A stretch of 60,465 nt of DNA, counting the filler, from Rhabdomonas costata (taxonomy: Eukaryota), in assembly GCA_019059605.1 (NCBI GenBank). It is 16 parts of 16 records of this genome, joined end to end, with 100 filler letters (N's around TTAATTAATTAA, not from the genome) between each part and the next. Parts side by side here need not be neighbours in the genome. Positions count along the whole stretch, not along the records: positions 22,746 to 26,434 come from JAHMHO010000606.1; 15 more parts are not named here. One strand, given 5' to 3'. Below are positions 3,699-26,547 of this stretch, piece by piece. The notes beneath the pieces were generated by a model, which ran no database searches, was not told the origin of the DNA, and worked only from the letters and a program-made list of their open reading frames with translations. Position numbers and translations under genes: made by a program. Position 1 is the first letter of the stretch. The number at the start of each line of letters is the position of its first letter.

Positions 3699-3798
3699 NN
3701 NNNNNNNNNNNNNNNNNNNNNNNNNNNNNNNNNNNNNNNNNNTTAATTAATTAANNNNNNNNNNNNNNNNNNNNNNNNNNNNNNNNNNNNNNNNNNNN
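3699..3798. other. Artificial contig spacer (N44-TTAATTAATTAA-N44), first of 15
   Basis: Six-frame stop linker inside N runs. The same spacer occurs at 7496, 11283, 15070, 18858, 22646, 26435, 30219, 34008, 37794, 41579, 45358, 49138, 52909 and 56688 (100 nt each). Adjacency across spacers has no biological meaning. Confidence 0.98.
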
Positions 3799-13470: not shown

Positions 13471-14418
13471 CCGCTCGGCCAACTCCTCCGCCACGCCACT
13501 TGGACTCGGCCGCGGCTATGCGCACTGGATCTCACGGGTGCCTCTCTCAACCACCTCCACTTTGGCGAAGAGGCTCCCTTGATTGGCCACCAACCCCATG
13601 TAACCTGCGTCACGGTGTCACCTGACGGCACCCGCATTGTCAGCGGGGGTGGGGACGTGAGAATTAGTGTTTGGAATCTGGAAAGTGGAATGGAGGAGGC
13701 AAGTCTTGCCGGCCACAGTCGACAAGTGACCTCGGTTGCCGTGACTCCTGATTGCACCCGCATCGTCAGTGGAAGTTGTGACGACAAGATTGTCGTCTGG
13801 AACCGCGAGTCGGGAAAGGAAGAAAGAGTCATTGATGAGGTCACAGACGGAGTGACCTCGGTTGCCGTTACTCCCGATGGCACCTGCATAGTCAGCGGAA
13901 GTGTGGAGAACACGATTAAGGTTTGGGATCTCGAGACGGGAAAGGAGGAAAGAGTTCTTGCTGGTCACACTCGCGACGTGACCTCCGTGGCGGTGACACC
14001 GGATAGCACCCGCATCGTCAGCGGAAGTGAGGACAATACGATAAAGGTTTGGATTCTGAGCACCCGCGGAGACCACTGTGAAACGTGTGGCCAGAGCCTC
14101 ACCGACAGTGCCCTGAGTCAATTGCCCAATGCACAGCTGGCAATGATCGACCGCTTCGGCAATTTCTGTAGCCATTGCGGCCGCGACAACTTCTCGATGA
14201 GTACTCTGGGGTACGGGGGTCCGATCGTGAAGAAGGTTATGCTGTCCGAGGGCTGTGCAGCGCCCTCGCTGCTCAATGGACCGAGGTACGTCCCGGTGAG
14301 CATACTTCTCGTTTTTTTGTTGCGGATTCAATACATCTGTGGTCTTGATGCCATGGAACCGTGTGTTCGCGTGGGCCCTTCGAACATTCCAATAAACATT
14401 GCTAAAAAACGATTATAA
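13471..14418 (+). CDS. Pentapeptide-repeat remnant + 4 WD40 repeats + CxxC..CxxC zinc ribbon; 5' end disrupted (possible pseudogene)
   Basis: Four similar WD40 units (GH..VTSVAVTPD.TRIVSGS.D.TIKVW). The frame extends upstream of 13579 through LRHATWTRPRLCALDLTGASLNHLHFGEE to a TGA at 13468. CETC..FCSHC follows the repeats. Possible donor at 14286. Confidence 0.85.
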   Translation, partial: PLGQLLRHATWTRPRLCALDLTGASLNHLHFGEEAPLIGHQPHVTCVTVSPDGTRIVSGGGDVRISVWNLESGMEEASLAGHSRQVTSVAVTPDCTRIVSGSCDDKIVVWNRESGKEERVIDEVTDGVTSVAVTPDGTCIVSGSVENTIKVWDLETGKEERVLAGHTRDVTSVAVTPDSTRIVSGSEDNTIKVWILSTRGDHCETCGQSLTDSALSQLPNAQLAMIDRFGNFCSHCGRDNFSMSTLGYGGPIVKKVMLSEGCAAPSLLNGPRYVPVSILLVFLLRIQYICGLDAMEPCVRVGPSNIPINIAKKRL

Positions 14419-22170: not shown

Positions 22171-23109
22171 AGCTGTTGAAGATGAGCGCTGATCCGTCCA
22201 GCAGGAGTTGATGAGCTGAGTGTGTTTCCTCACGCCTTTAACCACAATATACGTGGTCTATAGACCCCGTAGCGTGGCATCCCACAAGGAAGTGAGCGTT
22301 ATCTTACACATCAGTGGAGCAATCCAGGCACTGCGTTGGCGTAGCCAAACGTGCTGTAACCAAGCGAGTCCGAGTACATGAAACAGCTAGACAGCATCAG
22401 CGTAGAGGGGATTCGAGAAAAATACCTCTACGGATCACGCGGCGGCTTGCTTGGCCAAAGACCACCCACATCGGACAACTACTGTTTCTACCGCTTACTT
22501 TTGGTAAACATGTAGTGCCGGACCTGTTGTATTTAGGAGCTGGATTTATTCACGAGAGAATCCCTGTTCACTTAACTGCACATACAGTAAAAACGTGTGA
22601 AGAATTTAATGTCAGAGAGAGTCGGAACAATCTCACATAATATCANNNNNNNNNNNNNNNNNNNNNNNNNNNNNNNNNNNNNNNNNNNNTTAATTAATTA
22701 ANNNNNNNNNNNNNNNNNNNNNNNNNNNNNNNNNNNNNNNNNNNNGTTGGCGGTTCTCATTAATTCCATCAGAAAGTAGCACGTGCGAATGAAAAGTTGG
22801 TATATAGTATCCGACATTATCAGGACAACAGGGATCCATACTGTCCAGCGTCGAATGGCTCGAGCAAAGCAAGCGGTACAAAGGCAGCAGAAAAAAGAAA
22901 GAGAAGAAGGGGAAGGGGAATGAAAAGGAGAGTATGCTAGGAAATGCGCACGTCTGGACACAACGTGGGCAGAGCAAGGAAGTTTATGGGTGCGTGAGCA
23001 AGGCACAGGAAAAGAAAATGCAGCCGCAAACGGGCGGGTGCGCGAGGGGATGAGAGTAACGCGAAACAAATGATGCACAAAAACGCAATCCGATGGCCAA
23101 GCAGGCTGA

Positions 23110-25217
23110 TCAGTAGCGAAGAAGGTGCGCTTGAATTTCCCGGTTGTGCTCAGGGTTGGACAGCACGCCAATCATAAACTTTATCATCTCACCCTCCGAA
23201 AATGGCACATTGGCGGTGACACCAGGATCGTCGGTGTCACAGTAGCTATATTTCCAAAGGCCTATCTTCGCAAGGCTTTTGAGCTTGGTTCTCCAGCCAA
23301 GCAGTTCCTCAACCGAGCCTATTCCGCACTCCCTCATCTTCTCCGCCAAATGCCCCAGCTCAAAAACATGAAGCACTCGCCACAAGTGGTGGAACCGCCG
23401 GGCCTCCTCCAGCTCGGGCTCGGTACCGAACTCCCACCGGGGCGACAGCGGAGCCAGAAGCGTGAACTTGTTTCCCTCCACCACAGGCACCGCATACTCC
23501 GGGGGTGGTGTGTAGCCTGTTGGGTTTGGGGTGTTATGCTCCGCGTACCACGCACCGACTCGCCCCACAACCAGCCGGAAGAACTGCCGGCGACCCCCCT
23601 CAGGCATCCGCAGCGACTCGTGGGGGGTGCGGTCCGTCATCCACACCAGCTCACCAGCCCCAAGGCGCTTGCAAGGCACCCCGCGCAGCAGAGCCCGGCA
23701 GTGCTCCAGGCCCCCATGGGGGTGCACCACGGAGCCCTGGTCGTCGACAACGTGGCAGTTCCACACCGCCGTGCTGGAGTCCACTGTCGAGCACACAAAG
23801 ATCCCGCCCTTCACCCAGGATTGCCGCATCGGGCCCCGGCCCCATGGCAGCGACACCGCGTGGACGTGACGCGCGGAGCCCCGTGGATACAGCGGGAAGA
23901 ACGACGACTCCACGTGCGGCAGGGTCTCCCCTCGATATCCTCCCCAGAACCTTCCAAATTATCCATCAGAGTTTCAATGGTTAGTGTCATGGGACAAACA
24001 TGGTGTGGGTGCGATGGGGGTGCATCGCACGTACTATATATTGGATTGGTAATTGAGCTGTAACAACGTTGAGTGCGTCGGACTGCAGCGTCTTTGCATT
24101 TGCCATGGGCTCGTACCTGTTTGCTTTTACGAAAGGAGACACAAAGGGTTAGAAACGCTGCTGGCCTGGGCGGAGGTAATCGTTCTGTTCTTCACCATTT
24201 AACAGAACTCCTCCTATGCCAAAAAGCTCGCCAAATGCATGAACAAAAGACGCGGTTGAAGTTAGGTTTGGTGGTGGAGAAAAGTAAAAAAGGTAACGAC
24301 AGTAAAAATAGACAGGTGCAAACAACCTTCCAAATAATCCAACAGAGTTAAAATAGTTAGTGTCATGGGACAAGAGTAGGGGTGGGTGCGAAGGGGTTGC
24401 ATCGCACGTTCTAAACATTGGTGCCATTGAGCTGTATCAACGTTGATTTAGTCGGACTTAGCGTGTTTGCATTTGCCATGGCTCTTATCTGCTTCCCTTT
24501 ACGAAAGGAGGGGAACAGGTGGACGACTTTTTTCACTTATTGCGTGTGCCAGACAGACAATTTCGAAAGGAGAGTTGGGGGGATGTCGGAGTTAACCCCG
24601 TGCAGCCCGGGCCGGCGCTGAGCCTGCCCCAGCGCTACCTCCCGCTCATCTATGGTGAGGTACCCTACACCTCGGTGCTCCATGAATTCCGTGCACTTCT
24701 CGATCATTTTGACGTAGCCATGGCACCAGGTCGGCAGCGTCGCCCTGGGCTTGCCCAGCCAGAAGGGCATCATGTTCACATTCAGCACAGACCCCACCTG
24801 CCCTTTGTAGCTGTTCGGGGGAACCTCTGTGGGCGGGGGGAAGCTCAGCTCTGTGGCGAGCACGGCCATGGCGACCCCAGAGTACACCCCATCGGGCTGC
24901 GGGGGCTGCCAGTCACGGCCAAACCTCCGGGTGGAATCGCTCAGGTCTGGGATGTGGTCCATGGGAAGAAGCTCCTCTGGGGGTAGCCGCCTAGGGTGGC
25001 TGACGTTCCGGCCGCGGTAGCAGAAGAGCTTTGGGACGCCGCGGTGGATGTGAAGGGCCCACCACTCTTCACACGCAAGGCTTAAGATCACGCGCAGTAG
25101 GTCATGGTTATACCGAAGCTTGCTCAGAGCACTCGTGGGCTGCGCTGCGGCCCACAGGAAGGCATAGAGGTGTCGGTTGACGGGCGGACCATCATCGCGC
25201 TTCGGCTCTTCAGACAT
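23110..25217 (-). CDS. Uncharacterised protein with putative Fe(II)/2-oxoglutarate dioxygenase-like motifs, two exons
   Basis: Exon 25217-24600 (NVNMMPF..VGYLTIDE..QRRPGLH) joins in frame to exon 23913-23110 (VE..WGRG..GGIFVCS..ELVWMTDRTPHESL..RQFFRLV..WYAEHNTPNP). The joined protein has an H-x-E...H...R pattern. Confidence 0.75.
23914..24599 (-). mobile_element. MITE-like insertion / intervening sequence with imperfect ~50-nt terminal inverted repeats and a target-site duplication
   Basis: Minus strand reads gCTGCACG-gggttaactccgacatcccccc...ggggaggatatcgaggggagaccct-gCCGCACG-tggag. The two ends are imperfect reverse complements. Confidence 0.75.
23948..24510. repeat. Diverged ~190-nt direct repeat (23948-24138 and 24324-24510) inside the insertion
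   Basis: Shared blocks aaccttccaaat, gttagtgtcatgggacaa, tgcatcgcacgt, attgagctgta, tttgcatttgccatgg, tttacgaaaggag. Confidence 0.9.
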
Positions 25218-26547
25218 TTGCCACGGTGAGCTCCCGCCTCGTGGGAAACACGCGGAAGCGACTGAAAAAACTGAACTAAGGGGGAAGAACGAGTGATCGC
25301 AGCCAGCGTTGGCAACCTTGGAACCCACAAAGCTTTCTGGCAGCATCGTAAATGCCCAAAGCTGTGCCACTCAAGCCGCTTTTTACTTTTAAGAGAAGCT
25401 TTAAGAGAATGCACGTTCTGAGCAGCAAGTACGTTTTAGGGACTGGGTTCTTCAATAGGCTAATTCAGTTGATGGAATATTTCTTTAAAGGTCGGAAACA
25501 ACCCTTGAAAAACCCAAGCAAGCAAACTTCTCCCAGAACCAGCAACTTCCAAATTGAATGCGTCAAAACACTGCCCCCGCACCTGCACCCCAACCTATAT
25601 CGCCATCAGTCCCCCCCAACCTTTATTCGCTTGCTAATGGTCTGTCTTGCCGTTTCTGCTTTCGCTGTATTCTGTTGCCTTTCCCTTTCGTACAAACCAT
25701 GACCATTGCTGAAAATTGGCCTACTTTCGGCACTTTAGCTGTTTACGGCCTGCGTGCACAGCCGATGCTTTTGGCCCGGGCCTGCTTTGCCCACCCAAGC
25801 GTAGACCTCAGGAGTGCTTCCTCCTGGTCTTCGAGTCGTCGGCTGGCCTTCCTGCCTGCTTCCAAAAAGAGAACAATTCAAAGGAAATGTGCACACAGGG
25901 GTTGACAAGTATTTTTCTTGCTGTTTGGGAGACCTAGCCCTTACCTACGGGGCCAGGAGGCGTGCACAGCAACCGGTCTCCCTCAAAATTCGGAGGCTAC
26001 TTCGCTGAAGAGGGAATACGCGATGCAAGCGAAAAACTGGGTAAAATGGAAATAATACGCGGTTGTAGTCATCCGCCCTCAACCTTTGCAACACGCAAAG
26101 CCTGCTGGAAACATACTGGATGCCCAAGGACAAGTCAGGTCATCCCTCTGTCTTTCATTTTTGGAGAGGCTCTGGTTTCTTCTTAAGCACGTTTAAGGGA
26201 CTGGATATTCAACTGGCTTGTTTCGTAAAAGATCGGGAACCCCGTCTTGAAAAACCCAAAACCCAAGTAAAATTCACCCATGACCAGCTACTTTCCGCAC
26301 ACGAAAACGATCAGATGCACTGCAAGAAAAAGGAACCCCCGAAATATCCAGGGGAAGGTAATCCACCCCCTGAACATCAAAGCCTCACAAAGCAAAATAA
26401 AAGAGAAAAGGTGAACGAGAAGGAACCAACAACANNNNNNNNNNNNNNNNNNNNNNNNNNNNNNNNNNNNNNNNNNNNTTAATTAATTAANNNNNNNNNN
26501 NNNNNNNNNNNNNNNNNNNNNNNNNNNNNNNNNNTTGTTGGGGGGGG

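Follow-up and report, generated by a model that had tools for sequence, protein, structure and literature searches.

Does the 686-nucleotide (nt) insert that interrupts a gene of the euglenid Rhabdomonas costata leave the RNA, and if it does, by which kind of splicing? The question is raised by a 60,465-nt stretch of the assembly GCA_019059605.1, hereafter the 60-kb window, in which a gene of 473 codons, otherwise intact and lying on the minus strand of contig JAHMHO010000606.1, is split between His206 and Val207 by a sequence whose borders are not those of a spliceosomal intron. The first-pass annotation of this locus had proposed a transposon-derived intron within a putative metal-binding motif. 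We consider it likely that the insert is a real, euglenid-type nonconventional intron which is removed exactly, in a gene that has this single intron. The evidence consists of a transcriptome-derived protein that reads across the junction, the conservation of the interrupted motif, the sliding borders of the insert and the long helix predicted between its two ends.

The interrupted gene and the protein across its junction

Two open reading frames (ORFs) on the minus strand, 24537..25370 and 23110..23958, are offset by 2 in frame. The frame of exon 1 reads on past ...RRPGLH into the insert and stops at 24537, while the downstream frame begins within the insert and ends at the stop at 23110. Excising 686 nt (23914-24599) puts both ORFs in one frame with the junction codons CAC|GTG GAG, and the factual observations of the first-pass annotation were all reproduced. 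The insert is the sole intron of the gene.

A protein search with exon 2 gave 263 matches, the best 120 of which are considered here, and the best of all was P0001 (eukprot:RCo020866), a protein of 473 amino acids (aa) with 100% identity over the match. Across the junction P0001 reads ...AQRRPGLHVESSFF... (RRPGLHVES), and its length of 473 equals 206 + 267. When P0001 was compared half by half with the exons of the window, 471/473 residues were the same: exon 1 corresponds to residues 1-206 except for E123 (G in P0001), and exon 2 to residues 207-473 except for H462 (Q in P0001). According to PMC8219788, the 39,456 proteins of R. costata were predicted from the transcriptome, the genome draft being too fragmented for gene prediction, and therefore P0001 represents mRNA-level evidence and no gene model. 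The junction of this transcriptome-derived protein thus gives indirect evidence of exact removal of the insert from the mature mRNA.

The interrupted motif is also contiguous in other organisms. In an alignment of 30 sequences, made up of P0001 and 29 homologues picked from the 120 matches, RRxGxHxE is ungapped in 30/30, and R201, R202, G204, H206 and E208 are invariant. A search for a retained-intron product or paralogue with exon 1 and its read-through tail as query (226 aa) found neither, its 5 matches at E <= 1e-5 being proteins of 124-396 aa with 33-48% identity. Only one protein of R. costata occurs among the best 120 of the 263 exon 2 matches and none among the 5 matches of exon 1 with its read-through tail, so neither a paralogue nor a retained-intron product is indicated by the matches listed. 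Judged from these sequences, the insert appears to be intron-like and to be excised exactly, giving GLHVE and not GLHGTLPHVE; this agrees with the earlier suggestion that it is taken out of the RNA.

The differing codons, GAG (24851-24849, E123) and CAC (23148-23146, H462), are each one base away from those expected for P0001, and both alignment columns are poorly conserved; the differences may reflect allelic variation, an error of amplification or assembly, or a second copy of the gene.

Searches for the identity of the host protein gave 0 Pfam families at E <= 1 for both exon products and 0 matches at E <= 10 for a profile search of the Protein Data Bank (PDB) with the 30-sequence alignment, and the ESM Atlas returned unnamed clusters with a best score of 0.76, which were uninformative. 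An AlphaFold2 (AF2) model was built from the same alignment, with a predicted local distance difference test (pLDDT) value of 77.3 and a predicted template-modelling score (pTM) of 0.81. Nearly all rows listed by Foldseek for this model were Fe(II)/2-oxoglutarate (2OG)-type oxygenases, the best being KanJ (E 8e-4, template-modelling (TM) scores 0.26/0.39). VIA ranked FtmOx1 best (Z 9.7, root-mean-square deviation (rmsd) 4.5, 197 residues aligned, model residues 86-349), and Fe(II)/2OG-dependent dioxygenases filled its top 50. The model and the structure matches together point to a double-stranded beta-helix fold, and H206, E208, H304, R315 and R319 are invariant in 30/30 sequences. We therefore predict that the intron most likely splits the HxE of an iron-binding triad, an assignment that comes from conservation and fold, and that the host is an uncharacterised Fe(II)/2OG-dioxygenase-like protein. 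The putative metal-binding motif proposed for this site is plausible on the same grounds, namely the invariant H206, E208 and H304 and the predicted fold. Within an invariant, presumably catalytic motif, exact removal of the intron would be obligatory. The protein family is widely scattered, and its named matches come from chytrid fungi and an amoebozoan.

Borders, terminal helix and internal repeats of the insert

Exon 1 ends ...GCTGCAC and is followed by G, and the insert ends ...GCCGCAC and is likewise followed by G. Both copies of the flanking duplication noticed before (GCTGCACG and GCCGCACG in the sense direction) are present; the repeat measures 8 nt with 1 mismatch, and its two copies agree over an uninterrupted 5 nt, which lets the borders slide across 6 registers (-4..+1). 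A slide of at least 5 nt at the same spacing was found at 279/56,140 control positions of the window (0.50%). The termini in the successive registers are GC..CC, CA..CG, AC..GC, CG..CA, GG..AC and GG..CG, and GT-AG or GC-AG borders occur in 0/6 registers, as the first-pass annotation had stated. Registers 0 (C|G, C|G) and -2 (C|A, C|A) have pyrimidine|purine at both junctions, and in these two registers a purine begins both the intron and the downstream exon. The 20 nt before the AG at 23927-23926 are purine-rich, and the 3' border, too, follows purine-rich sequence that lacks a polypyrimidine tract. In register -1 the 3' end reads CTG-N5|exon and the 5' end reads CGGGGT, which had been taken to mean that the CTG lacks its 5' partner; the CTG-N5 spacing held, but the partner is not missing, since the CUG at 23922-23920 pairs with the CGG at 24600-24598 in the fold.

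The insert was folded together with 20 nt of each exon (726 nt), and both the minimum free energy (MFE) and the centroid structures were considered. The two ends form an imperfect terminal helix of 38 pairs (31 Watson-Crick, 7 G-U) in 47-nt arms, which bears out the imperfect inverted repeats of about 50 nt recognised at first sight. The terminal 50-mers form a duplex of -46.4 kcal/mol, compared with -23.1 +/- 4.5 in 1000 shuffles, none of which reached -46.4 (0/1000). When the minus strand of the contig was scanned, only two of the best 8 scanning windows listed were at or below -46.4, both overlapping the true arm, and in the scan of the whole 60-kb window 6/11,636 scanning windows reached this value, the lowest being the complement of the arm itself. 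The helix continues weakly into exon 1 (24618-24600 with 23901-23920), because the junction repeat GCYGCAC holds the self-complementary GCNGC. Exon 1 and the intron are able to pair through their final 7 nt, and the two cut sites would then lie 6-7 bp apart in one helix.

When characterizing the interior of the insert, we observed two direct repeats of about 190 nt that the first-pass annotation had missed. They are 82.8% identical (159 matches, 27 mismatches, 6 gap columns); both units start CTCCTTTCGTAAA and finish ATTTGGAAGGTT, and in the fold of a single unit these ends pair into a 7-bp stem. Moreover, the outer 5' arm contains the 5' motif a third time (CTCCTTTCGAAAT, 24573-24561), paired with the end of the 3' unit. 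It looks as if a module closed by its own stem had been duplicated within the intron, which would have grown in this way. If the units were duplicated in place, their divergence to 82.8% makes the insert old, yet the exons are undecayed. A search of the whole contig against Rfam on both strands (E <= 1) gave 0 matches and thus no sign of the 190-nt units as a known small RNA. The coordinates of all these features are collected in the table.

Table. Positions of the interrupted gene, the insert and its parts in the 60-kb window (GC3, GC content at third codon positions).
Feature	Position	Strand	Remarks
Exon 1	24600..25217	-	206 codons, start Met (25217) to ...RRPGLH; GC 62.9%, GC3 77%
Exon 2	23110..23913	-	267 codons + stop, VESSFF...HLLRY*; GC 62.2%, GC3 75%
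Putative nonconventional intron, register 0	23914..24599	-	686 nt; GC 47%; 6, 8 and 10 stops in the three sense frames
Upstream junction direct repeat, GCTGCACG (sense)	24599..24606	-	
Downstream junction direct repeat, GCCGCACG (sense)	23913..23920	-	one mismatch to the upstream copy
5' arm of terminal helix	24553..24599	-	pairs with 23921-23966 in MFE and centroid folds
3' arm of terminal helix	23921..23966	-	pairs with 24599-24553
GGG triplet, +4..+6 of register -2	24596..24598	-	pairs with CCC 23922-23924; all three pairs in the MFE fold
CCC triplet	23922..23924	-	followed by 6 nt, then purine A23915, the first exon base in register -2
Internal repeat, 5' copy	24324..24510	-	187 nt; ends CCUUUCG / UUUGGAAGG close a stem
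Internal repeat, 3' copy	23948..24138	-	191 nt; its 3' end is the inner part of the terminal helix
Contig holding gene and insert	22746..26434		3689 nt; from regular N runs
Linkers (examples)	3699-3798, 22646-22745, 26435-26534		from regular N runs

The window as a whole has a GC content of ~50% and consists of 16 contigs (~3.67-3.70 kb each) joined by linkers (N44 + 12 nt + N44) every ~3.79 kb. A linker separates genes that have no physical linkage, and nothing can be read from long-range context within the window. On another contig, an unrelated ORF (13471-14418, plus strand) encodes WD40-like repeats (recurring ...VTSVAVTPD..RIVSGS...I.VW...).

Probable exact excision and its competing explanations

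On this anatomy, the outermost ~47 nt at either end of the intron would pair in the pre-mRNA as a long imperfect helix, with a few pairs running into exon 1, and the helix would set both junctions side by side. A machinery independent of GT-AG would then cut both junctions and join the exons exactly, the cuts falling most likely at the pyrimidine|purine steps of register 0 or of register -2. Exact joining would restore the invariant RRPGLHVE, whose His and Glu are the presumed iron ligands. The intron may be released as a circle, as PMC11282704 reports for E. gracilis; removal as full-length circular RNA, after the conventional introns, is cited there as a property of nonconventional introns. 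The cutting mechanism is one that we infer.

Several observations weigh against this account. The Euglena signature N3-CDG/CH'G-N5-6|R, which was defined by knock-in genetics and in which the 5' spacer is strictly 3 nt (Nomura et al. 2025, PMC12501133), occurs in 0/6 registers, the paired triplet being GGG:CCC. CGG-CTG and CGG-CCG are working variants in Euglena (PMC12501133), but the spacers of the CGG/CUG pair found here sum to 5, not to Euglena's 8-9, and cutting N3/N5 from this pair would delete the codon of His206, which contradicts P0001. The terminal arms were not reported by a seed-based repeat finder, and the whole 726 nt folds only mildly better than its shuffles (z -2.36, 1/20 shuffles as good). 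As to P0001, RCo is our reading of the identifier as Rhabdomonas costata; the protein differs from the window at two residues (E123G, H462Q), and therefore the transcript may stem from another allele or copy, possibly one free of the insert. From the protein match we infer that this very allele is the one spliced. Regarding the signature, PMC12501133 gives its presence in 61.2% of the nonconventional introns of E. agilis, so that it is not obligatory for the class.

The two-residue difference keeps alive the main rival explanation, namely that a miniature inverted-repeat transposable element (MITE)-like sequence is inserted in one unproductive allele or copy, that the exact-junction transcript comes from an insert-free allele or paralogue, and that the insert is no intron. 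Inverted ends flanked by an 8-nt target-site-like repeat with one mismatch would suit such an insertion, and 2/473 differing residues are what would be expected of another allele; the absence of the Euglena splicing signature points the same way. A silent insertion is harder to reconcile with two fully open exons that are 471/473 identical to an expressed protein, with internal repeats at 82.8% identity that make the insert old, if they were duplicated in place, next to exons that have not decayed, and with the presence of one R. costata protein, and no sign of a paralogue, among the best 120 of 263 matches. In addition, the 60-kb window contains no second copy of the element, and the introns that euglenids do excise, as described in PMC3935182 and PMC11282704, have exactly this anatomy. 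We regard a silent insertion as unlikely.

An artefact of assembly or of whole-genome amplification, by which foreign or chimeric DNA was misplaced within the gene, might be suspected in a window made of very short contigs, and PMC8219788 describes the published R. costata draft as highly fragmented and derived from amplified DNA. The insert, however, is bounded by a direct repeat, its excision brings the reading frame back with single-base precision, the two ends complement each other over 47 nt, and it holds diverged internal repeats and no copy of other window sequence. The direct repeat, the frame restoration, the complementary ends and the internal repeats are not expected of a random chimera, and we consider an artefact very improbable. 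Hardly any weight, and the least of the three, can be given to a conventional spliceosomal intron running from the GT at 24596 to the AG at 23927-23926. These sites exist, as the first-pass annotation had noted together with the missing pyrimidine tract, and they splice in frame, adding G-T-L-P-H to give GLH-GTLPH-VE. The five extra residues are absent from P0001, 30/30 homologues have no insertion in RRxGxHxE, GGG|GTTAAC makes a weak donor and the stretch before the AG is purine-rich. No other GT-AG pair is in frame, and a U2-type intron was rejected for the five residues that neither P0001 nor any of the 30 aligned sequences contains.

The insert was also thought to be possibly intermediate between structure-guided and spliceosomal excision, and this idea finds no support. 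Intermediate introns in the sense of Milanowski 2014 begin with GT or GC and have a secondary structure that joins their ends; here a GC start occurs in register -4 alone, which ends in CC. In its treatment of intron ends, PMC4770533 puts 5' GT/C ends down to selection for a purine and not to kinship with conventional introns, and recognises there no distinct type.

Mobile elements and nonconventional introns of other lineages

A MITE-like origin of nonconventional introns was proposed by Milanowski et al. in 2014 (PMC3935182) and was taken up later (PMC11282704, PMC12621601), and an alternative origin by double-strand-break repair, leaving extended junction repeats, was put forward in 2016 (Milanowski et al., PMC4770533). 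The anatomy of a MITE is present in our insert, with imperfect terminal inverted repeats (31 Watson-Crick positions in the 47-nt arms) and the 8-nt repeat with 1 mismatch. hAT elements make 8-bp target-site duplications. The CAGGG terminus, by contrast, needs a duplication of 7 nt, which leaves the termini 2 nt out of register with each other. The hAT-type label was rejected, since one end reads CAGGGT... and the other GGGTTA..., with CAGGG appearing only under the 7-nt duplication.

The view of the insert as a hAT-like MITE is not supported: CAGGG is found at one terminus only, and the 60-kb window has no second copy. Within this window, a tiny part of the genome, blastn with the insert matched nothing beyond the insert, its internal repeat and, by chance, one stretch of 17 nt (E 0.42), and the proposed further copies of the termini did not turn up, the 18-nt terminus with <=3 mismatches matching only itself. 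When conserved parts of the unit served as exact patterns against metagenome contigs, both scans came back with 0 matches, and of the 5 candidate proteins obtained with the 92-aa frame that spans the 3' unit none lay at E <= 0.01; the collections searched in both cases are unlikely to hold R. costata. All these negative results, including those from the window, carry little weight.

The insert resembles introners and MITE-derived introns, as characterised in PMC11282704, in its inverted termini, in its target-site-like duplication and in the restoration of the frame by excision with one repeat copy. Such families have many near-identical copies, removed mostly by the spliceosome at GT-AG-like sites that derive from the element and the duplication (PMC11282704), whereas the present insert is without a known second copy and makes no use of canonical sites. 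There is some chance, although a modest one, that the intron is a recognisable mobile element, that is, a MITE-like unit of ~190 nt (CCUUUCG/UUUGGAAGG stem) in G/C-rich arms, with an 8-bp target duplication and internal growth, whose related copies would be nonconventional introns of other genes and whose structure-guided machinery would accept GGG:CCC for CAG:CTG. If true, the long-standing MITE-origin hypothesis would gain its first evidence from a sequence family, and the nonconventional splicing code would have a second 'dialect'.

Nonconventional introns are well documented in euglenids and diplonemids, and very few have been described outside Euglena; for R. costata, only seven putative ones were reported by Soukal et al. 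2021 (PMC8219788). The class of euglenid nonconventional introns and the MITE-origin hypothesis are already known, and the present case is ordinary for its lineage and no new kind of element. The new details are the two internal ~190-nt repeats (82.8% identical) and a host with a predicted Fe(II)/2OG-dioxygenase-like fold. As a sole intron that lies in an invariant, presumably catalytic motif, with a very long helix, a long junction repeat and Euglena spacing around another triplet, it is an unusually clear specimen. It offers a useful substrate for asking whether the Euglena-defined splicing code holds across euglenids, and could reasonably serve as the starting point of a genome-wide search for families of related sequence in nonconventional introns. 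A single case does not by itself alter current knowledge.

Previous studies characterised nonconventional introns by variable non-canonical borders, a structure joining the ends, frequent direct repeats at the junctions, pyrimidine|purine (Y|R) junctions and the lack of a pyrimidine tract (PMC3935182, PMC4770533, PMC11282704); the most conserved pairing in these descriptions is that of +4..+6 with -8..-6, usually CAG/CTG. The R. costata insert shows non-GT/GC-AG borders, an end-joining structure, a junction repeat and Y|R junctions without a polypyrimidine tract. It is a member of the class by this general definition and departs from the Euglena code in the identity of the triplet. Like the introns of E. 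gracilis and E. agilis, it has no GT/GC-AG, has borders that can slide owing to short direct repeats, has paired ends, lacks a polypyrimidine tract and carries a purine at the start of the intron and of the downstream exon. Register -2 (intron 24601..23916; UGC|ACGGGG...CCCUGCCGC|ACG) moreover has the N3/N6 spacing of the Euglena geometry, with N3 followed by 3 paired nt at the 5' end, and 3 paired nt followed by N6 and a purine at the 3' end. The differences from Euglena introns are GGG:CCC in place of CDG:CH'G, a helix of 38 bp that is far longer than the few pairs stressed in Euglena, and a long junction repeat (8 nt, 1 mismatch); R. costata itself, unlike Euglena, is a primary osmotroph outside Euglenophyceae.

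With the seven introns of R. costata in PMC8219788 the insert shares the kind of evidence, a transcript compared with a genomic contig, and a stem-loop at the ends, and the example intron presented there likewise sits in a 'hypothetical protein'. The present intron may or may not be one of these seven; if it is, it would already be fully known. Diplonemids are a different lineage, and the authors of PMC12621601 include an adapted spliceosome among the mechanisms which they consider for diplonemid noncanonical introns. As characterised in PMC12621601, those introns have, like the R. costata intron, non-GT-AG borders and interacting ends, and a MITE-like origin has been proposed for them; their inverted G- and C-rich ends are resembled by the ends of the intron described here.

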